Source: Candidatus Moraniibacteriota bacterium (GTDB lineage: Bacteria; Patescibacteriota; Minisyncoccia; Moranbacterales; UBA1568). From it: DNA of 64,000 bases. This document shows, piece by piece, positions 10,364-22,805 of this stretch. Made by a program: the position numbers and the translations under genes. The DNA lies in the NCBI GenBank assembly GCA_013334575.1, contig JAAXXG010000002.1, positions 69,377 through 133,376 of the forward strand, given 5' to 3'. How positions within the stretch are numbered: position 1 is the first letter of the stretch; each line of letters starts with the position of its first letter. The notes under the pieces were generated by a model. That model was not told the DNA's origin. It made no database searches and saw nothing but the letters and a program-made list of their open reading frames with translations.

Positions 10364-11629
10364 TCACTCCTTCCGCAGGGCTTCCATCGGAGAAAGACGG
10401 GAAGCGCGAACCGCGGGAGAGAGCCCGAACAGGACTCCTACCGCGACCGAGAACCCCGCCCCGAGCAGGAGCGAACGCGGTGTGAGTACAAGCGGAACGG
10501 AAAAGCCCGCGCGACCGAGGGCGAGCGACGACGCCCAGGTGAACGCGACACCGAGTGCGATACCGATAAGACCGCCGAGCCCCGTCACGATGACCGCCTC
10601 GACAAGAAACTGCGACAGGACGTCCCGTGATTTCGCACCGACCGCCTTGCGCAAGCCGATTTCGCCCGTACGCTCGGCAACTGAAACGTACATGACGTTC
10701 ATGATACCGACCCCCCCGACGATGAGCGAGATGGACGTGAGCGCGACCAGGAGGATCGAGATGGTCCCGACCACGTCGCCGAGGGTCTTCTGCGCCTCCT
10801 TGGTCGACGTCACCGCGAAATCGTCCCGCGATGGATCCTCGATATCGTGCTCCTTCCGAAGAAGCCGCGTGATGAGATCCACCGTCTCCTCCTCCCGTCC
10901 CGGGTCCTCCATGCGGACCGAGATCATCTGCACATAGTCGACACCGAGCAGCTTCTTCTGCAACGTCCGAATCGGAACGTATGCCATGGCGTCGAGGTCA
11001 AAGAAGGCGGCCGAGCCGCGTTTCCCGAGCGTGCCGATCACCCGGTACCGCTCTCCGGAAATCGTGACAGACTCCCCGACCGCGTCGCGGTCCCCGAAGA
11101 ACGACCGCTTCACCCCGTATCCGAGGACGATGACCCTGGAAAGGCTCTCATCCTCCTCGGACGAATAGAACCGACCGCTCTCGAGCTTCAGGTTGGAATC
11201 GACGAGCGGCGCACCGGCGCCGGCGCCGAACAGCATGACCCGTTTTCCGACGGAACCATAGGTAGCCCGTTCCTGCGCGATACTGCCGGCGTACGAAGCC
11301 AGGACGTTCGGTAGCCGATCGACCCGTTCCTCGTCGTCGAGCGTCAGCGTGGTTATCTGAATACCCTGCGCAATACCGCCGGAGTTTTCCGTCGAGGTCT
11401 TGCCGGTATTAGGCACCTTGACCTCGATCTGGATCAGGTCCGTCCCAAATGTCTCGACCAGGCCGGTGACATACCCCTTCACCCCGTCGCCGAGCGACAT
11501 GATCACGACTACCGCGAAGACACCGACGACCACGCCAAGCAGTGCGAGCGCGGTCCGCGCCTTGTGCGTACGGATGGTCCGGACCGCGAAGAGCACCGGA
11601 CGGAAAAAGGTGGATCGGAAGAGAGACAT
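10364..11629 (-). CDS. ABC transporter permease, MacB/FtsX family
   Basis: 421 aa. N-terminal TM helix, large extracytoplasmic domain and a C-terminal FtsX-like 3-TM bundle. Paralogous to 14954..16195. Confidence 0.8.
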   Translation of the reverse strand: MSLFRSTFFRPVLFAVRTIRTHKARTALALLGVVVGVFAVVVIMSLGDGVKGYVTGLVETFGTDLIQIEVKVPNTGKTSTENSGGIAQGIQITTLTLDDEERVDRLPNVLASYAGSIAQERATYGSVGKRVMLFGAGAGAPLVDSNLKLESGRFYSSEEDESLSRVIVLGYGVKRSFFGDRDAVGESVTISGERYRVIGTLGKRGSAAFFDLDAMAYVPIRTLQKKLLGVDYVQMISVRMEDPGREEETVDLITRLLRKEHDIEDPSRDDFAVTSTKEAQKTLGDVVGTISILLVALTSISLIVGGVGIMNVMYVSVAERTGEIGLRKAVGAKSRDVLSQFLVEAVIVTGLGGLIGIALGVAFTWASSLALGRAGFSVPLVLTPRSLLLGAGFSVAVGVLFGLSPAVRASRLSPMEALRKE

Positions 11630-11633
11630 GGCT

Positions 11634-12533
11634 TCAGGCGACCGGAGGGATACCCTTCGAGGCGGCGCGACGCCTCAGGAAGAGTATCGTCCGCGAGATG
11701 ATCCGGACGACGACGAGCGTCGCGACGAGCGCGACCGAACCGGCATACATGACCCGCGCCCATCCGTGAACGGAGTCCGTACCGCTCATGAACCCGTGCA
11801 GGACGAACAGCGGATAGGCGGCGAAGCTGGCATAATGGACGATACGCCATGACCGGGCCGGAAGCTTCGAACGGAATTCCGCGGTCAGGATAAGCGCGAC
11901 GACGAGATAGAACGCGATCACCCCGAGCGCGACCGGAATCCGGACATCGAACCCGGCGGAAGAGACGAGCCCCTCCCGGGAGAACAGAAACGGTACGAGC
12001 GCTTCGACCGGGGTCAGTCGGAGGAAGCCGTCGAACATGAGGCTCACGAAGTGGAGCACGACGGCGACCAGTCCGGCAAGCGATATCGATCGATGCAGTT
12101 CGTACGCATCCACACCGGGAATGAGACGGGTAAACGCACGCGACGAAATGATGAGGCCGAACACGACCGAAAGCGTAAGCAATCCGAAGGCGGCCACTCC
12201 CGCAGCACGACCGAAGTACCACGGATATTTCTCCGGCTGCCCGGAGATGCCCGGATCCGAGAAATCGCTCGCGGAAACGGTGCGGACGTCGGCGGACAAG
12301 GGGTCCGTCCCGTCGGTCACCTCCTGACCGTCCGATATGCCGTCCCCGTCCGTGTCGGCGTTCGCCGGGTCCGTGTGATAGATCGATATCTCCCCGTCAT
12401 CCGTCAACCCGTCGATATCGGCATCCTTGACCGCCGCCCGGGCGACGGATGTCAAAGAGAGCGTGATGATGATCGTGGCGACGGCAAGCGAAACGGAAAA
12501 CCGGCTATTTTTCGTCGGTTTCGGCATACACAT
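11634..12533 (-). CDS. exported Ca-binding-repeat protein with C-terminal ferric-reductase-like bis-His membrane domain
   Basis: Signal peptide, then D-x-D-x-DG repeats (DADIDGLTDDGE, DTDGDGISDGQE), then 5 TM helices with H-x14-H (HRSISLAGLVAVVLH) and H-x13-H (HYASFAAYPLFVLH). Confidence 0.5.
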   Translation of the reverse strand: MCMPKPTKNSRFSVSLAVATIIITLSLTSVARAAVKDADIDGLTDDGEISIYHTDPANADTDGDGISDGQEVTDGTDPLSADVRTVSASDFSDPGISGQPEKYPWYFGRAAGVAAFGLLTLSVVFGLIISSRAFTRLIPGVDAYELHRSISLAGLVAVVLHFVSLMFDGFLRLTPVEALVPFLFSREGLVSSAGFDVRIPVALGVIAFYLVVALILTAEFRSKLPARSWRIVHYASFAAYPLFVLHGFMSGTDSVHGWARVMYAGSVALVATLVVVRIISRTILFLRRRAASKGIPPVA

Positions 12534-13467
12534 AGGGTTTCATGAGGTCATTATACATCGTCCGACCGTCATCCGTCACCAGGAACATCGGGAGCGCGTG
12601 TCGCCTCGCGAACGGTTCCGCCTCGGAGGAACCCAGGATACAGAGCGACTTGGCGAACGTCTCCGCGCGGATGACCGACTCCGAGACCACCGTCGCCGAA
12701 ACGATATCCGTCTCCGCGCTCTTCCCCGTCCTCGGATCGATCAGGTGGTGCCGGACCCTCCCGTCGACCGTCGTCCATCGGCGCCGATCGGTTCCGGATG
12801 TCGCCACCGCCCGGTCGGACAGGATGAGTAACGCCGCGGAACCCGACCTGCCGACCGGATCCGCAACGTCGATCGCCCAATACGGATTCCCCTTCTCCGC
12901 GTCTCCGCCGGCAGCAAACATGTCGCCGCCCGCATCGATCAGGAAATCGGTATATCCGCGCTCACGCAGGAGACACGCTGCCCGATCGACCGCATACCCC
13001 TTCGCGATTCCGCCGAAATCGATCCGGACGCCGTCCGGCACGCGGACTTCGCCGTCCTCCCGGAGCACGATATCCCCGAACCGGAACGGCGCGACGGATC
13101 CGCGTTCTCCGAGAATCCCAAAAGCTTCGGTCCCGAAGCTACCGACGTATCCTTCGGACTCGAGCGACGGCAGAATCGCGGGATCGAAGAGTCCTTCCGT
13201 CTCCCGATAATACGAAAAGGAGTCCGCCAGCAAACGTCGGAACTCGGACGACGGGCGACGATTCGATCCGGCATTGAATCTCGACAGTTCGCTTTCCGGA
13301 TCGAATCGTCCGAACCGCCGTTCGACATCCCGGAACGAGACGAACACGTCGGCGAGATCACGAGACATGCGCCTCTCGTCTCGGCTACCGGAAACGAGCC
13401 TCACGAACACGTCGGTCCTCATGATCTCGCCGCGGAGCTCCCTTTCAACGGACCGGTAATCTTCCAT
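12505..13467 (-). CDS. apbE: FAD:protein FMN transferase (ApbE family)
   Basis: DFGGIAKGYAVD motif plus ApbE-like flanks. Start taken at MEDYRSV (rc ATG 13465-13467). The N-terminal extension of the ORF is Arg/Thr-rich read-through. Confidence 0.8.
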   Translation of the reverse strand: MEDYRSVERELRGEIMRTDVFVRLVSGSRDERRMSRDLADVFVSFRDVERRFGRFDPESELSRFNAGSNRRPSSEFRRLLADSFSYYRETEGLFDPAILPSLESEGYVGSFGTEAFGILGERGSVAPFRFGDIVLREDGEVRVPDGVRIDFGGIAKGYAVDRAACLLRERGYTDFLIDAGGDMFAAGGDAEKGNPYWAIDVADPVGRSGSAALLILSDRAVATSGTDRRRWTTVDGRVRHHLIDPRTGKSAETDIVSATVVSESVIRAETFAKSLCILGSSEAEPFARRHALPMFLVTDDGRTMYNDLMKPYVYAETDEK

Positions 13468-13927
13468 ATGCGTCAACGATGCCGTCGTGATCGGCGTCGG
13501 TCCCGTTCTCGGAATAGGCCAGGTCGTCCTCGTCGGGATGCCGATCGAATACGTTCGGGACGGCATCGCCATCGTCGTCCGTGAAGTACTCCCATTGCGG
13601 AACCTTCGGGTCCGGATCGAGCGCATCGACCAGCCGGTCGCCATCGGAATCCGTCCGGTACTCTTCCGGCATCACGAGGACCGTCCTCGTCACCTGTCGC
13701 GTCTCGTATCGCGTCTCCCAGACCGTGACCGTCCCGCCGGATGAGGATCCGTCACCGTCATCTTCCCCGTCATCATCCTCCCCGTCATCTTCGTCGTCCT
13801 CGCCGAGCACATACGCCTGCTGGACGAACCCGGATGGGATACGAAATGACGGCACGAGCACCGAGACGACTGCCGACAGCATCGCGAACGTCGCGATCAA
13901 CAGCATCCGGAACCTCAGTCGTTCCAT
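13445..13927 (-). CDS. membrane-anchored acidic Asp-rich repeat protein (putative Ca-binding)
   Basis: N-terminal TM/signal, then an EDDEDDGEDDDGEDDGDG run and DSDGDRLVD, DDDGDAVPN, DADHDGIVD repeats. Confidence 0.45.
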   Translation of the reverse strand: MERLRFRMLLIATFAMLSAVVSVLVPSFRIPSGFVQQAYVLGEDDEDDGEDDDGEDDGDGSSSGGTVTVWETRYETRQVTRTVLVMPEEYRTDSDGDRLVDALDPDPKVPQWEYFTDDDGDAVPNVFDRHPDEDDLAYSENGTDADHDGIVDAYGRLPVR

Positions 13928-13932
13928 ACGCG

Positions 13933-14346
13933 TCAGGATGATGATTTCGTCGTCCGACTGCTCGACGGCTTCGTCACCGGAACCTGGACCGGTACCGTCT
14001 CGGTGACCGTCTTGGTCGTCGTCTGCCGGCTCTCCTCGACGAGCGCCGGTTGCCTGCCGAGCAGTTCGTCATATCTCGCGCGGGCATCCTCCATGAGGCG
14101 GCGGAGTCCGTCGCGCTCGGAGGCGATCCGACCGAGGTATGCCTCTCTCGCGTCGCCCTGCACGCGCAGTGACGTGAGAAAATCGTCGAGCCTCGCGTCC
14201 CGGGCCTCGAGCCGCTTTTCCTCCTCTCCATGTAACACGGCGAACGTCGCTCCCCCGAGCAGTGCGAGCGATGCCGCCGCGACAACCGACCTGATTTCCC
14301 AGATCCGTTTCATCTCCGTCACGTTAGTACTCGTATCATACCACAA
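13933..14346 (-). CDS. hypothetical membrane-anchored coiled-coil protein
   Basis: TM segment followed by a charged helical region. 137-aa ORF. Confidence 0.35.
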   Translation of the reverse strand: MWYDTSTNVTEMKRIWEIRSVVAAASLALLGGATFAVLHGEEEKRLEARDARLDDFLTSLRVQGDAREAYLGRIASERDGLRRLMEDARARYDELLGRQPALVEESRQTTTKTVTETVPVQVPVTKPSSSRTTKSSS

Positions 14347-14357
14347 AAAAGACCGGA

Positions 14358-14603
14358 CTACGGTCCGGCCTCGATCTCCCGAACACTCCGCACAGCCTCC
14401 TGCCCGGGAGCTTCTTCGGATTCGACGCGCTCCTCGATGCTCTCGTCGTTCATGCCGCTCACGACCGAGACCAAGTCCCTGACCCTGGGATGTTCCATGA
14501 ACGGGCTCGACGGAGCGATAACAAGCGATACGAGAAAGGTCGCCACCAGCATGGCGCGGTATCGTTTCCTGATTCGGTGAAAACCTCGCTTCATACGCCG
14601 CAA
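14358..14603 (-). CDS. hypothetical small protein
   Basis: 81-aa ORF with a basic N-terminus and one hydrophobic helix. Confidence 0.3.
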   Translation of the reverse strand: MRRMKRGFHRIRKRYRAMLVATFLVSLVIAPSSPFMEHPRVRDLVSVVSGMNDESIEERVESEEAPGQEAVRSVREIEAGP

Positions 14604-14615
14604 AACATCATCTTC

Positions 14616-14867
14616 TTACGAGGCACGCGTCGAGCGAGTCGGCGTCGGCACCGACTGAGTCGCCGCTTCGCCCTTCGATACCGTGGTTGCCGTACCGGAC
14701 GAAGCACCGGCACCGGTCGATACGTCCAGAGCCGACGGACGGGACGCCGGTACCGTCGATCCTGTCGACGACTTCACTTCGGTCTTCGAGAAGACCCAGA
14801 GGAAGACTCCGCCGAATATTCCCGCCACAGCGAGTGTCGATATCACGATTATACCGATCCTTTTCAT
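14616..14867 (-). CDS. hypothetical small membrane-anchored Ser/Thr-rich protein
   Basis: MKRIGIIVISTLAVAGIFGGVFLWVF TM helix followed by an S/T/A-rich tail. Confidence 0.35.
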   Translation of the reverse strand: MKRIGIIVISTLAVAGIFGGVFLWVFSKTEVKSSTGSTVPASRPSALDVSTGAGASSGTATTVSKGEAATQSVPTPTRSTRAS

Positions 14868-14953
14868 ACCATTGGTACGTTACCGTTTTTCGGAACCCGT
14901 CGCGGTCTCCCAACCGCTCCACCGGATACTACGGGCGCTCCGAAACCAGGTTT

Positions 14954-16195
14954 TCACTCGTACCGCAGCGCCTCTATAGGCGGAATCCGCGATGCTCGCC
15001 ACGCAGGAAAAAGCCCGAAGACGAATCCGACCGAGAGCGACACGGCGAGTCCAATAAGAACGGACGATACGGGAACGATAAACTCCCACTCATACCCGAG
15101 CCGCGGGATGATGACCGACGCCAGGTAGGCCACAAGGATACCGAACGCGACCCCTGCCGCCCCGCCGAGCCCCGCAATGAACGCCGACTCGATAAGGAAC
15201 TGTGTCATGATGTGACGCGGCCGGGCACCGACCGCCTTGCGCAGGCCGACCTCGCGGATGCGCTGATTCACCGCGATGAGCATCGAGTTCATGATGCCGA
15301 TCCCGCCGACGAGCAGTGAGATGGAGGCGATCGCCGTCAGGAAGTACGTGAGCACGTTCGTGACGTTTCCCAGGACCTCGAGCGCCTGTGCGGTGCTGCG
15401 GACCGAAAAGTCCGACTCTTCGCCATCCTCGAGATCGTGCCGGTCGCGCAGGAGTGTCGCGATGTCCTCCATCGCGCGGTCGATGTGCGACGTGTCGTCG
15501 ATCTTGGCACGGGCGAAGTTGAGGTAGTCGATGCCAAGCAGCGTCTTCTGCGCCGTCGCGAGCGGGACATAGACGAGGTTGTCCGGATTGGAAAACGTGG
15601 ACGACCCGCGAGCCGCCAGCACGCCGACCACGCGGAACGGGATATCCTTGATGACGAGCGTCGATCCGAGCGCGCCGCCGTTCGGAAACAGCTCATCGGC
15701 CCGCGTCGAGCCGAGCACGGCGACACGGGAGAGATCCTCTTCTTCCTCGAGGAAGAAGAATCTCCCCTCGGAGACCTCCATGTTCTCGATCGAGACCGCA
15801 TCCGGCGACACCCCCTGATAACTCGTCACGAAGGACTCCCCGGACGACTCGACCACCGCCGATCCCGAGACGTAGCCGCTCGCGGCGACCAGATCCGGCA
15901 CGTTGGCCTTCTGGCGAAGCGCCTTGAGATCCCCGTTCTTGAGCGTGGTCGTAACGATGCCCATCGCGCTCGCCGGCGGTCCGTTCTCTTCCGACGCGCC
16001 GGGAAGGATGCCGACGAGGTTCGACCCGACCTTCTCGACCTGCGAGAGGATGAGTGCCTGCGCCGAGGCGCCGATCGACATGACGAGGATGACCGCCGCG
16101 ACCCCGATGACGACGCCGAGCACGGTCAGGAAGAACCGCAGTTTGGCGGCACGGAGCGAACGAAGCGCGATCTTGATCGGATCGGAGAATTTCAT
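14954..16195 (-). CDS. ABC transporter permease, MacB/FtsX family
   Basis: 413 aa. Same architecture as 10364..11629. Sits immediately downstream of the ATPase gene. Confidence 0.8.
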   Translation of the reverse strand: MKFSDPIKIALRSLRAAKLRFFLTVLGVVIGVAAVILVMSIGASAQALILSQVEKVGSNLVGILPGASEENGPPASAMGIVTTTLKNGDLKALRQKANVPDLVAASGYVSGSAVVESSGESFVTSYQGVSPDAVSIENMEVSEGRFFFLEEEEDLSRVAVLGSTRADELFPNGGALGSTLVIKDIPFRVVGVLAARGSSTFSNPDNLVYVPLATAQKTLLGIDYLNFARAKIDDTSHIDRAMEDIATLLRDRHDLEDGEESDFSVRSTAQALEVLGNVTNVLTYFLTAIASISLLVGGIGIMNSMLIAVNQRIREVGLRKAVGARPRHIMTQFLIESAFIAGLGGAAGVAFGILVAYLASVIIPRLGYEWEFIVPVSSVLIGLAVSLSVGFVFGLFPAWRASRIPPIEALRYE

Positions 16196-16390
16196 GTATC
16201 AGACAGCGATGAGCAGATAACATTTAACGACAGACTATGAGATTCAACTCGATGAAAAAATATGAATACATCGACTATCAATCCTCGAGACCTTTTCGTC
16301 CGTAATGATACCGATGGCCGGAAAATGGAATAATTACAGGACTTCATTTCGGTGCCCCGTTATCTGTTCATCGATATCTGTTATCTGACC

Positions 16391-17113
16391 TTATTTCAAC
16401 GTCACCTCGCCGTCCCGGGCGATACGGCGGTTCGTAACCGGCTCGTCGCCGACGATGCGCCCGTCCGCGACACGGAGGATGCGCTTGGCATGCTCCGCGG
16501 TCAGCGTCTCGTGCGTCACGAGGATGACCGTCCGCCCCGCATCATTGAGCTGCTGAAGGATCTTCATGACCTGGAGCCCCGACTTCGAATCGAGGTTTCC
16601 AGTCGGCTCGTCCGCGAAGACGATGTCCGGATCGTTCACGAGCGCGCGGGCGATCGCTACACGCTGCTTCTCGCCACCGGAAAGCTGTCCGGAAAAGTAC
16701 TTCGCCCGGTGGGTCATGCCGACTGCCTCGAGTGCCGCCGCGACGCGCTTCCCGTTCCGCTCGGTCGGATCCTCGTCGTAGAGAAGCGGCAACTCGACGT
16801 TCTCCTCGACCGTCGTCTTGGGCAGCAGGTTGAACGCCTGGAACACGAACCCGATCCGTCGGTTCCGGAGTCCCGCGAGCTCGTCGTCGGAAAGCTCGGT
16901 CGCGTTGCGGCCGTCGAGCAGGTAGGTCCCGCAGTCCGACCGTTCGAGCAGTCCCAGGATGTGCATAAGGGTCGACTTGCCCGAGCCCGAGGGTCCCATG
17001 ATCGCGACGAACTCCCCTTTCTCCACGGAGAACGACACGTCATGAAGCACGGAGGTCCGGACACCTTCGTTCTCGTACGTCTTGCAGAGATCCTTCACGG
17101 AGATGAGAGGCAT
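16391..17113 (-). CDS. ABC transporter ATP-binding protein (MacB/LolD-type)
   Basis: Walker [10 protein letters not shown], signature [15 protein letters not shown], Walker [13 protein letters not shown]. 240 aa. Confidence 0.85.
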
Positions 17114-17283
17114 GTCCGAAATAAAGCGTTATCGTTACCATTGTAACACAAATCCTTTCCAATGAACCGGAATGGACCAAGATCTCCGAGTCCGACCGAG
17201 AATCGTGTTTTTTCGATTTCACGAAAAAAACATAGCTCAATAAAGCCATGATTTCAGCCATTATTTCATTTCGACCCTATCCC

Positions 17284-21809: not shown

Positions 21810-22805
21810 CTATTTCACCTTCGCGACGACGACCGATTCCCCTTCGGACAGCCCCGATTTGATCTCGATGGTCCCCTCGTCGCCCTCGATGCCGAGCATC
21901 ACTTCGCGCCGCTCGGACGAGATACCGTCGGGAGACACGTCCACGAACGCCTTGCTTCCCTGCCGGGTAACCGCGCGGAACGGCACCGAAAGCGCGTTCT
22001 CGGCCTTGGCCGTCACGATATCGATGGTCGCGCTCATCCCCTCGCGCAGGCGCGAATCGGCGTCGGCCATCCGGAACCGCGTCACGTAGGAAACGACATC
22101 CTGTACGACGGTAGCCGACGGCTCTATCTCGTAGATCTCGGAACGGAACACGTCGTCTTTGGTAAGCGCGTCAAAGGTGACGTCACCTTCCATCCCGTCA
22201 TGCAGCTTCGTCACGTCGGCTTCCGGAACCCGGGATTCCAGGATGAGGCCTTCACCGGCCGACACCCGACCCACGATGCTTCCCGCGATCGCGGTTTCCC
22301 CCTCGCGCAGGTCGAGCCGGGTCACGACGCCGTCCATCGGCGAGACGATGTCCGCCTCGGCGATCTGCGTTCCCAGGGTGCGAACCTTCTGCCGCGCCTG
22401 CTCGGTCGTCAATTTCTTCGCCTCGCGTTCCTCGGGCTTCAGCGAATCCCACCCGCGCCGGGCGAGCTTCTCGGCTTCGACGGCGATATCGAGCGCGATC
22501 TGCGCGTCGTGCAGCTGCGAGCGCAGTACGGAGGTGTCGAGGGTCGCGACCGTCTGTCCCTTCTTCACCGTATCGCCCCGCGTCACGAGCACCTTCCCGA
22601 CCGTTCCGACCGACGCATACGAAAGGTCGGCGTACGACTTCGGTACGAGCTCGCCGGTCACCGACACGGTCTGCATGACCGTCGCCCGTGAGACGGCTTC
22701 GGTCTCGTACAGACGCTTCGGTGGGCGCGTCATGAACCACGCGACCGTTCCGATCACCGCGACCGCCAAGACCGACAGCCAGACGACTTTCGTTCTTCTC
22801 TTCAT
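21810..22805 (-). CDS. HlyD-family periplasmic adaptor (membrane fusion protein)
   Basis: N-terminal TM, lipoyl/beta-barrel hairpin architecture. Motifs VKKGQTVATLD and VSPMDGVVT. Confidence 0.7.
   Translation of the reverse strand: MKRRTKVVWLSVLAVAVIGTVAWFMTRPPKRLYETEAVSRATVMQTVSVTGELVPKSYADLSYASVGTVGKVLVTRGDTVKKGQTVATLDTSVLRSQLHDAQIALDIAVEAEKLARRGWDSLKPEEREAKKLTTEQARQKVRTLGTQIAEADIVSPMDGVVTRLDLREGETAIAGSIVGRVSAGEGLILESRVPEADVTKLHDGMEGDVTFDALTKDDVFRSEIYEIEPSATVVQDVVSYVTRFRMADADSRLREGMSATIDIVTAKAENALSVPFRAVTRQGSKAFVDVSPDGISSERREVMLGIEGDEGTIEIKSGLSEGESVVVAKVK

Follow-up and report, generated by a model that had tools for sequence, protein, structure and literature searches.

Introduction

Flavinylation by the flavin adenine dinucleotide (FAD):protein flavin mononucleotide (FMN) transferases of the ApbE family underlies Na+-NQR, RNF, N2O reduction and the extracellular electron transfer of Gram-positive bacteria. 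The canonical substrates of ApbE and FmnB are FMN_bind proteins (NqrC, RnfG, PplA), NqrB/RnfD, DUF2271, DUF3570 and Flavodoxin_4 proteins, and FMN reductase. ApbE recognises the canonical motif D-x-x-[S/T]-G-A-[S/T] and attaches FMN to its final residue; a seven-residue sequence is enough, and the Asp is dispensable (PMC12052999). In a few percent of the ApbE-containing genomes no known substrate is found (PMC8238504). The present study concerns an ApbE-containing gene cluster at positions 10364-17113 of a 64,000-nt stretch (hereafter the window) of contig JAAXXG010000002.1 from a Candidatus Moraniibacteriota bacterium (assembly GCA_013334575.1, positions 69,377 to 133,376 of a contig of at least 135 kb), in which the gene for ApbE lies beside that for a membrane protein with a ferric-reductase domain (FRD).

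The described systems closest to this cluster are those of the flavinylation-associated 'MsrQ-like' electron-transfer class (Meheust 2021, PMC8238504; Huang 2024, PMC11334425). With them it shares a di-heme-type membrane protein of Pfam family PF01794 encoded beside apbE (within at most five genes), the C-terminal NAD-binding domains or NuoF-like neighbours seen in relatives, and the proposed export of electrons to an extracytosolic flavin. The pairing of ApbE with a heme b membrane module, to which an earlier reading of the window from its sequence (the original prediction) had drawn attention, matches this published class (PMC8238504) and is already known. The cluster differs from MsrQ-like systems in that it contains no FMN_bind (PF04205) gene, and neither its ApbE nor any recognised substrate offers the signal peptide or lipidation site that the inclusion rule of PMC8238504 demands. 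It differs further in its partner proteins, which comprise small membrane proteins with a conserved C-terminus (here called tail proteins), TSP3 repeats and an acidic secreted protein, and in its host, a member of the Candidate Phyla Radiation (CPR)/Patescibacteria. By these features the cluster represents a distinct sub-type of the MsrQ-like class. Our literature search found no paper linking flavinylation with Patescibacteria, and a text search of part of the supplementary tables of PMC8238504 gave no match to CPR or Microbacteriaceae. In the literature searched, the signal-less ApbE, the absence of FMN_bind, the tail family with its motif, the TSP3 and acidic partners and the occurrence in CPR appear to be undescribed.

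ApbE and the FRD protein belong to a four-gene module shared by distant phyla

A scan with a narrow alignment of the FRD core, covering one genome per species and the JGI metagenomes, yielded 38 plus 46 loci. These 84 loci came from Moranbacteria, Saccharibacteria, Microbacteriaceae and other Actinobacteria, Chloroflexi and Firmicutes (Lysinibacillus, Paenibacillus). In almost every one of them, across five phyla, the FRD gene was immediately preceded by the ApbE gene, which implies that the clustering is not due to chance. The proposed association of ApbE with a bis-His, di-heme-type FRD protein is therefore a conserved functional pair. Moreover, four genes were common to very distant phyla, encoding an acidic secreted protein, a tail protein, a signal-less ApbE and an FRD protein with a clade-specific G-T-D motif. 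In most lineages the small single-pass tail protein was found upstream of ApbE. At least one open reading frame (ORF) with a single transmembrane (TM) helix and a [ST]xx[ST] C-terminus was present just upstream in 59 of 87 loci, and within the 2.6 kb preceding ApbE/FRD such tail-like ORFs accounted for 10.2% of the ORFs on the same strand, as compared to 0.88% elsewhere in the loci.

In the window, all genes of the cluster lie on the minus strand. The gene models rest on protein conservation across loci; gene calling based on G+C at third codon positions could not be relied on for genes of low complexity. Between 14313 and 10364 each gene overlaps its neighbour or lies no more than 5 nt away from it, which indicates one operon, comprising tail protein 2 (13933-14313), the acidic protein asp160 (13445-13927), ApbE (12505-13467), the FRD protein (11634-12533) and a MacB-type permease (10364-11629). 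The ApbE gene overlaps that of asp160 by 23 nt and the FRD gene by 29 nt; an overlap such as the 23-nt one is typical of translational coupling.

Variants of the arrangement were also observed. Loci L079/L080 (3820-5576) encode a tail protein, an asp160-like protein and a TSP3-containing FRD protein with no ApbE gene between them, and locus L033 (5714-7555) encodes a fusion of an FNR-like protein, a TM helix and a tail, together with FRD, again with no ApbE gene in between. These variants imply that ApbE can be encoded elsewhere.

The tail proteins end in a conserved motif with two hydroxyl positions

The original prediction listed an ATP-binding cassette (ABC) ATPase, two MacB permeases, an Asp-rich protein, ApbE and the TSP3/FRD protein, and all of these were found to be present. 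The list was incomplete, as three small membrane proteins encoded between the first MacB permease and asp160 (14616-14867, 14358-14603 and 13933-14313) had been overlooked. Two of them are tail proteins. Tail protein 1 (sm83; 14616-14867, minus strand) has 83 aa with an N-terminal TM helix and a linker rich in Ser, Thr, Ala and Pro, and ends ...PTPTRSTRAS. Tail protein 2 (cc137; 13933-14313, minus strand) has 126 aa counted from MKRIW, and ends ...RTTKSSS. The AlphaFold2 (AF2) model of the latter consists of one helix spanning residues 2-95 (predicted local distance difference test, pLDDT, above 95), in which the N-terminal TM helix runs on into a helix of about 70 residues, followed by a disordered 30-residue tail (pLDDT about 52). 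The candidate flavinylation sites are the C-terminal motifs TRSTRAS at 14619-14639 and RTTKSSS at 13936-13956, both on the minus strand. No Pfam or NCBIfam match was obtained for the tail proteins or asp160, and the tail proteins are labelled 'hypothetical'.

The first search for homologues of cc137 returned one near-identical protein, and an exhaustive HMMER search produced a family of 60 representative clusters. Overall identity within this family is just 25-48%. At the C-terminus, Ser is the last residue in 58 of 59 sequences, Thr occupies position -3 in 55 of 59 and Lys or Arg position -2 in 53 of 59, giving the consensus ...KPKSTR-x-T-K-[T/S/A]-S-COOH. The sm83 paralogues of relatives end in a similar manner (...PRPTRSTRSS, ...ASRTTRAS, ...PTRTTKTS), and close relatives encode two to three tail paralogues each, which have unrelated linkers rich in Ser, Thr and Pro and share the tail.

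Proteins at the equivalent position in Actinobacteria end in ...[S/T]-G-[A/G]-S-G-G-COOH, for example PSGTTGGSGG, PPxASTGASGG, PPDGSSGGSGG and VPDGVSRASGG. Their TGAS, TGGS or SGGS, sometimes with an Asp, lies 0-3 residues from the C-terminus and nearly matches the canonical ApbE motif, and these tails thus carry near-canonical sites at the C-terminus. The TM helix and the terminal tail of these proteins (93-125 aa) are invariant and the Pro/Ala-rich spacer is variable. In P0181-P0194 the spacer is a variable number of 'APVVE/APAPAP' repeats in front of PSGTTGGSGG, and the length of the tether looks tuned. The Firmicutes versions end in ...DGTTRRS-COOH (Paenibacillus) and ...ERKTKRT-COOH (Lysinibacillus). 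In CPR and Firmicutes tails both hydroxyl positions stand in the canonical register, and the window tails RTTKSSS and TRSTRAS retain only these two Ser/Thr positions of the canonical motif. The actinobacterial-type tail SGTTGGS of P0174, a member of the cc137 family, bridges the Moranbacteria and Actinobacteria versions.

With regard to orientation, in Saccharibacteria the TM segment, linker and tail are joined to the C-terminus of an FNR-like protein, and since there is one TM helix, the tail must face outward (N-in/C-out). This topology is in line with the tail proteins of Firmicutes, the N-termini of which are strongly basic.

Like the canonical substrates, the tails have the proposed modified Ser/Thr three positions after another Ser/Thr, in Actinobacteria with G-[A/G] in between. 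A site on a C-terminal extension is also known from Lactococcus, the FMN reductases of which are flavinylated by ApbE at such a position (PMC11334425). Unlike the canonical substrates, the tails have no folded flavin-binding domain around the site, which lies in a disordered segment, 0-3 residues before the C-terminus, carried by a stalk that is helical or rich in Pro and Ala; CPR and Firmicutes tails have K/R-x instead of G-A. The target of ApbE had originally been described as unclear; judged from their sequences, the two tail proteins of the window are now strong candidates. Two other possibilities were considered and rejected. In asp160, 'SSSGGT' resembles S-G-A-T, but it is missing in the L010, L012 and L014 orthologues. 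A read-through or frameshift that fuses the tail protein to ApbE, and would thereby tether ApbE outside, was dismissed because the two ORFs do not keep a constant frame relative to each other from one actinobacterial locus to the next.

ApbE is predicted to be an intact, cytosolic transferase

The gene at 12505-13467 (minus strand) encodes a 320-aa ApbE-family FAD:protein FMN transferase. It matched the Pfam ApbE profile (PF02424) with 182.7 bits against a cut-off of 25.6 (E = 1.3e-53), over positions 12-258 of 266, and its relatives in the PDB were TM1553 and the ApbE/FmnB proteins of E. coli, Salmonella, V. cholerae and Listeria (E = 1e-22 to 1e-16). The longest ORF, 12505-13644 (379 aa), runs 200 nt into the asp160 gene in another frame, and its first 59 codons are an out-of-frame reading of the acidic repeats. 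On the basis of orthologue comparison, the start was assigned to M60 (13467). The invariant ATSG...HH(L/I)(I/L)DP motifs are present as ATS224G and H240-H241-L-I-D-P. The Ser-to-His spacing of 16 together with E/D at 269 fits Ser241/His257/Asp285 of V. cholerae ApbE, the correspondence being one of motif and spacing and not of a residue-level alignment. A Ser-His-Asp catalytic centre has been described for ApbE (PMC12052999), and the catalytic motifs indicate an intact FMN transferase that is predicted to transfer FMN.

We observed no signal peptide, lipobox or TM segment in ApbE. At the same time, the ORFs of about 70 orthologues start 3-25 non-hydrophobic residues ahead of the first strand of the ApbE fold, and for the window ORF and these orthologues together the room before that strand was put at 15-23 such residues at most. 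The absence of an export signal both here and in these orthologues predicts a cytosolic enzyme, and thus the premise that ApbE flavinylates extracytosolic proteins should not be taken for granted in this cluster. Cytosolic ApbEs without a signal are known to serve cytoplasmic fumarate reductases (PMC12052999). The ApbE of Klebsiella pneumoniae and the ApbE domains of trypanosomatid fumarate reductases are likewise signal-less and cytoplasmic (PMC12052999), but their substrates are cytoplasmic fumarate reductases with FMN_bind, whereas in our case the partners are a membrane cytochrome and exported tails.

The original prediction had seen neither an FMN_bind domain nor a flavinylation motif in the neighbours of ApbE. 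This was borne out by our scan, which found no FMN_bind domain and no D-x-x-[ST]-G-[AS]-[ST] motif in any real ORF of the 64-kb window. In addition, targeted scans of selected neighbours of related loci revealed no FMN_bind, and none was present in the families that recur in a set of 93 neighbour proteins drawn from over 30 diverse loci. The families that did recur in this neighbour set were two-component systems and two NuoF-like proteins.

The FRD protein has a NOX-like domain of the di-heme type with outward-facing TSP3 repeats

The FRD protein (11634-12533, minus strand; 299 aa) is 100% identical to the Candidatus Moranbacteria protein HGB18_01750 of NCBI (P0001), the start of which is at 12527. 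It begins with a signal-anchor/TM1, followed by two bacterial TSP3 repeats and then by five TM helices, which form a NOX-like ferric-reductase domain. Its match to Ferric_reduct (PF01794) reached 33.2 bits, as compared to the gathering threshold of 28, over profile positions 1-120 of 121. The two TSP3 (DxDxDG-type) repeats occupy residues ~35-85 (12279-12431), and both stretches match the TSP3_bac profile (PF18884; E = 4.7e-12), with D35, D37, D39, G40, D58-D62, G63, D66 and G67 near-invariant. On the presence of these repeats, binding of Ca is predicted and a Ca dependence of the module is conceivable.

Two His pairs were originally reported, H-x13-H and H-x14-H. The translation contains H147-x13-H161 and H233-x12-H246, so that the first pair stands and the spacing of the second is corrected to x12. 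The codons are located at 12093-12095 (H147), 12051-12053 (H161), 11835-11837 (H233) and 11796-11798 (H246), and the stretch from H147 to H246 thus covers 11796-12095. All four His (H145/H159/H231/H244 in P0001 numbering) are invariant among 35 homologues. Just downstream of H246, at 11781-11789, lies the clade-specific G-T-D (G249/T250/D251, P0001 numbering). In the AF2 model (mean pLDDT 84) six helices are formed, and the His pairs fall on the third and fifth of these, the predicted TM helices 138-164 and 224-248 (P0001 numbering). A position outside the TM helices, which would have counted against the original prediction, was thus not observed.

The nearest relatives by profile among solved structures, all of them remote, were S. 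pneumoniae NOX, STEAP4 and DUOX1 (E about 1e-4). The top Foldseek matches were all members of the FRD family, namely SpNOX (8qt6), DUOX1, STEAP1/2 and the TM domain of NOX5 (5o0t); as their E-values were weak (at least 0.015, TM-score 0.3-0.4), we took them as support for the fold and not as proof. The FRD identity is based on these matches together with the Ferric_reduct profile, the invariant His and the AF2 model; with this evidence the protein has the fold and the four invariant intramembrane His of NOX/FRE/STEAP-type di-heme b domains, and from the His it is inferred to bind two b-type hemes. The His arrangement had been likened to that of a ferric reductase or MsrQ; the x13/x12 spacing is of the NOX/FRE type and the nearest solved relatives are SpNOX, DUOX, STEAP and NOX5.

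With NOX and ferric reductases (SpNOX 8QT6/8QQ7, csNOX5 5O0T, DUOX1, STEAP1/2/4) the protein shares the six-helix FRD fold with H-x13-H/H-x12-H on helices 3 and 5, and the likeness extends to relatives, as P0055 and the actinobacterial FRD proteins carry an FAD/NAD(P)H domain. It differs from NOX in having no dehydrogenase domain, in the TSP3 insertion between helices 1 and 2 and in its own extracellular signature. E. coli MsrQ (YedZ) belongs to the same Pfam family and some homologue entries are named after it, but neither the genes of the cluster nor the scanned genes in its vicinity include an MsrP/molybdopterin partner. To our knowledge, CPR bacteria generally lack quinones.

The cytoplasmic side of the FRD proteins differs between lineages. 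The window protein ends 14 residues past the last helix, without a C-terminal FAD/NAD(P)H dehydrogenase domain, and no FNR-like gene was found in the 64-kb window. In Actinobacteria FRD is fused to FAD_binding_6, NAD_binding_1 and a 2Fe-2S ferredoxin domain, in Saccharibacteria the FNR-like protein is encoded separately from FRD, and P0055 is a fusion of TSP3, FRD and NAD_binding. These C-terminal dehydrogenase fusions place the C-terminus of FRD inside and therefore the TSP3 repeats, between helices 1 and 2, outside. Apart from the His, the majority of the invariant residues map to the outer face near the outer heme (W, R, F-D, P-F and G-T-D), and this signature is not present in SpNOX. A different FRD sub-family was observed in locus L087 (1177-2826), which encodes an N-anchored cytochrome-b5-like protein and then a SpNOX-like FRD-FAD-NAD fusion (399 aa); this locus has no ApbE and no G-T-D motif.

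Acidic and TSP3 proteins accompany the module

The secreted Asp/Glu-rich protein asp160 (13445-13927, minus strand; 160 aa) consists of a signal peptide, a poly-D/E stretch, a T-rich beta segment and three to four TSP3-like repeats, and is found at 40-64% identity in Moranbacteria loci. In P0052 an asp160-like segment is fused into the outer loop of FRD, which ties the acidic protein to the outer face of FRD. Clusters of Actinobacteria and Lysinibacillus also encode a secreted D/E/H-rich protein. In Saccharibacteria (L026, L028, L031, L032, L033, L036, L041) an N-anchored protein of about 200 aa is encoded just downstream of FRD. It has a conserved beta-rich ectodomain containing Cys, with a weak Big_14 match in L036, and ends in several cases in ...GGGGGTDN or ...NNGGDN. 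This protein may be the counterpart of the acidic protein.

TSP3 repeats were also found joined to L,D-transpeptidase (YkuD) domains (P0097, P0100, P0107, P0109, P0115, P0118 and P0120; P0109 is a Falkowbacteria entry and P0097 also contains a TsaB-like domain). In these lineages TSP3 may be a general module of the cell surface and not specific to redox chemistry.

A membrane redox module with tethered flavin as a possible function

We tentatively propose that the core operon and sm83 encode a compact module by which electrons would leave the cytoplasm through the membrane, the C-termini of the tail proteins being the substrates of ApbE; in our estimate this falls somewhat short of an even chance. 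The core would comprise, in the order of transcription, tail protein 2 (13933-14313), asp160 (13445-13927), ApbE and the TSP3-FRD protein, plus the paralogous tail gene at 14616-14867. The flavin acceptor would be the extreme C-terminus of the single-pass tail proteins, built of a TM helix, a long helical or Pro/Ala-rich spacer and the conserved tail, and not an FMN_bind domain; the last Ser of ...T-K-[T/S/A]-S-COOH would stand in the register of the FMN-bearing residue of D-x-x-[S/T]-G-A-[S/T]. Electrons would enter FRD from a cytoplasmic donor, which in relatives is an FNR-like NAD(P)H module, and would cross the membrane via two b hemes, as the invariant His suggest. They would then reach the flavin that, on the comparative evidence, ApbE may attach covalently to the tail Ser/Thr, the outer heme beside the clade-specific extracellular W, R, F-D, P-F and G-T-D handing them over to this tethered flavin. 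Finally, and more speculatively, the flavin could reduce an outside acceptor, plausibly a metal ion held by the acidic and TSP3 proteins.

It may further be speculated that the tail is flavinylated in the cytoplasm before its C-terminus is exported, which would spare the export of FAD. Such a sequence of events would fit with the location of the site, which is always at the extreme C-terminus and so in the segment exported last, and with the finding that every lineage with the signal-less ApbE/tail arrangement is monoderm, a condition under which the export of both ApbE and FAD is costly. In Listeria a dedicated flavin-export route is required (PMC9973259). The fully specified version, a monoderm-specific sub-type in which a bare C-terminal peptide on a variable membrane stalk is flavinylated before export ('flavin on a leash'), is possible but on balance doubtful. 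In this version the tails of CPR and Firmicutes would be ...T-K-x-S-COOH and those of Actinobacteria ...[S/T]-G-[A/G]-S-G-G-COOH, and their flavin would shuttle electrons from the NOX-like di-heme protein into the cell envelope.

Several points weigh against the tails being ApbE substrates in a redox module. The tail motif is short and rich in Ser and Thr, and the resemblance could be partly compositional. In Moranbacteria and Firmicutes K/R-x replaces G-A, and we know of no characterised ApbE that would accept such a sequence. With ApbE predicted to be cytosolic and the tail extracytoplasmic, either an undocumented modification before export or an unconventional localisation of ApbE would be needed. 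L079/L080 and L033 retain the tail protein and FRD without an adjacent ApbE, and the scan of this genome for FMN_bind and other targets covers the 64-kb window. Heme binding by FRD is itself inferred, and CPR bacteria are, as far as we know, generally thought unable to make heme.

No rival explanation considered accounts for the conserved tails as well as their role as ApbE substrates does. The cluster could be an ordinary MsrQ-like system, in which ApbE modifies an FMN_bind, DUF2271 or NqrB-type protein encoded elsewhere and the tails are unrelated envelope proteins travelling along. The published class is defined by PF01794 beside apbE, 'typically' with a gene for an FMN-binding domain (PMC8238504), the contig is at least 135 kb long as against the 64 kb of the window, and in L079/L080 and L033 ApbE is indeed not adjacent. 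However, we consider this unlikely: FMN_bind was not found in any neighbourhood examined in five phyla, the tails co-occur with ApbE-FRD far above background and have strongly constrained C-termini, those of Actinobacteria carry the canonical motif, and ApbE has no signal peptide, unlike the ApbEs serving exported FMN_bind proteins. It is still less probable that ApbE flavinylates FRD itself, either at the clade-specific T217 ('LTAEFR', at the cytoplasmic end of TM4), where a covalent FMN would let electrons in to the inner heme, or at the invariant Thr in the extracellular G-T-D loop beside the outer heme. FRD is the only partner that stands beside ApbE in virtually every locus; T215 and G249-T250-D251 (P0001 numbering) are kept in the ApbE-linked clade, in place of the V-A-Y and M-G-N of SpNOX, and a cytoplasmic site would suit a signal-less ApbE. 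Yet neither L-T-A-E nor S-G-T-D resembles [ST]-G-A-[ST], T215 lies within a predicted helix, and G-T-D faces outward according to the topology deduced from the C-terminal FNR fusions.

Two further explanations concern the role of ApbE and the extent of the module. ApbE might not flavinylate proteins at all but act as a cytosolic FAD-binding protein or FAD pyrophosphatase that gives FRD a non-covalent flavin and so replaces the missing FAD/NADPH domain. Its cytosolic location, the absence of a dehydrogenase domain in the window FRD as opposed to its relatives, and the hydrolysis of FAD by some ApbE/Ftp proteins such as Treponema Ftp (PMC4767422) would be in accordance with this, but the catalytic motifs of transferase-type ApbEs are kept, ApbE is present even where FRD has FNR-like and 2Fe-2S domains, and no redox role is known for ApbE-bound FAD, which makes this the least probable of the explanations considered. 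Alternatively, the whole of 10364-17113 could be one machine, in which a heterodimeric MacB-type transporter, perhaps with an HlyD protein, cooperates with the redox module; its task might be to pull the membrane-anchored tail proteins out or set them free, or to handle heme like the MacB-type HrtBA. Many Moranbacteria share the order ABC-MacB1-...-FRD-MacB2, even where the identity of MacB1 falls to 38%, MacB2 begins 4 nt after the FRD stop codon, and a MacB/ATPase pair stands beside ApbE-FRD in several actinobacterial loci and one Saccharibacteria locus. Such an assembly nonetheless seems improbable. The transporter is absent from L002, from most Saccharibacteria loci and from the Firmicutes and Chloroflexi loci, MacB2 is missing in L009, L010, L012 and L013, a terminator-like hairpin parts the ABC unit from the core, no NCBIfam match to a heme-specific family was obtained, and MacB-type transporters are so numerous in these genomes that their adjacency may be due to chance.

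Even on a conservative view, our analysis documents a coherent, unannotated four-gene module across distant phyla. If the tails are substrates, this would account for the 'orphan' ApbEs of an entire sub-type, which occurs in Actinobacteria, Firmicutes, Chloroflexi and CPR, and ApbE would use a minimal natural peptide tag, which is relevant to flavin-tag biotechnology. Modification before export would let wall-less or monoderm cells avoid the export of FAD, and there would be a new route to extracytosolic flavoproteins that requires the export of neither FAD nor ApbE. CPR bacteria are usually described as having no electron-transport chains; they would gain a membrane redox module, and this raises the questions of where heme and flavin come from and which acceptor is used outside (iron, oxygen or a host surface).

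The MacB transporter and other neighbouring genes

Upstream of the core operon lies a unit that includes a MacB/LolD-type ABC ATPase (16391-17113; Pfam ABC_tran, E = 3.4e-35), MacB-type permease 1 (14954-16195; MacB_PCD, E = 8.6e-42, plus FtsX), sm83 and sm81, an 81-aa acidic TM-anchored protein (14358-14603) kept in the closest relatives only. A consensus scan identified a terminator-like hairpin at 14349-14372, with a 10-bp stem containing 6 GC pairs and a T-run, and a second one at 17250..17231, upstream of the ABC ATPase; both are on the minus strand. The two hairpins bracket ABC-MacB1-sm83-sm81, which suggests that this unit is transcribed separately from the operon of tail protein 2, asp160, ApbE, FRD and MacB2, and the hairpin at 14349-14372 probably marks the boundary between them. 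The tail paralogue sm83 is thus located in the upstream unit, beyond the hairpin from the core operon. Scans of the window for tRNA genes and Rfam families, including the FMN riboswitch, gave no match.

MacB-type permease 2 (10364-11629, minus strand; Pfam/NCBIfam match), the start of which is 4 nt past the stop codon of FRD, is a paralogue of permease 1 with 38% identity. The transporter is of MacB type, as permeases with MacB_PCD and FtsX domains occur together with their cognate ABC ATPase. Synteny of the MacB/ABC genes is confined to Moranbacteria, among which the more distant locus L002 lacks them, as do most other lineages. One group of Actinobacteria and one locus of Saccharibacteria have a MacB/ATPase pair near ApbE-FRD, encoded on the opposite strand. 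The original prediction had included the MacB transporter in the cluster. With synteny confined to Moranbacteria and a hairpin between the ABC unit and the core, it falls outside the conserved core and is probably a neighbouring or accessory system.

An HlyD-family membrane-fusion protein of the HlyD/CusB type is encoded at 21810-22805 (minus strand; Pfam HlyD_D23, E = 1.1e-13), outside 10364-17113 and 4.7 kb upstream of the ABC ATPase, and locus L001 has a YknX-like gene at the equivalent place. This hints that the HlyD protein and the MacB genes form a tripartite system similar to MacAB/YknXYZ. The genes share with MacB, LolCDE and YknXYZ the MacB_PCD and FtsX permeases, a separate LolD/MacB-like ATPase and a nearby HlyD-type protein, and the presence of two paralogous permeases is reminiscent of LolC/LolE. 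They differ from these systems in the link to a redox module, which is here syntenic only, and in their host, an organism that has no outer membrane.

Regulatory genes were also observed near related clusters. In the actinobacterial loci L017-L024, L052, L056 and L060 a divergent OmpR-type response regulator and a HAMP histidine kinase adjoin the cluster, and histidine kinase domains were present in 9 and response regulator domains in 7 of the 93 neighbour proteins, which suggests dedicated two-component control in Actinobacteria.

Between the ABC ATPase and the HlyD gene, the segment 17393-21328 contains six genes on the minus strand. Four of these have no Pfam match (126, 166, 250 and 208 aa), and the others encode an alpha/beta-hydrolase with weak similarity to the Tle3 phospholipase and a CYTH-domain protein. 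The G+C content of this segment is about 0.53-0.55, as compared to about 0.60-0.62 in its flanks, and it could therefore be a variable island.

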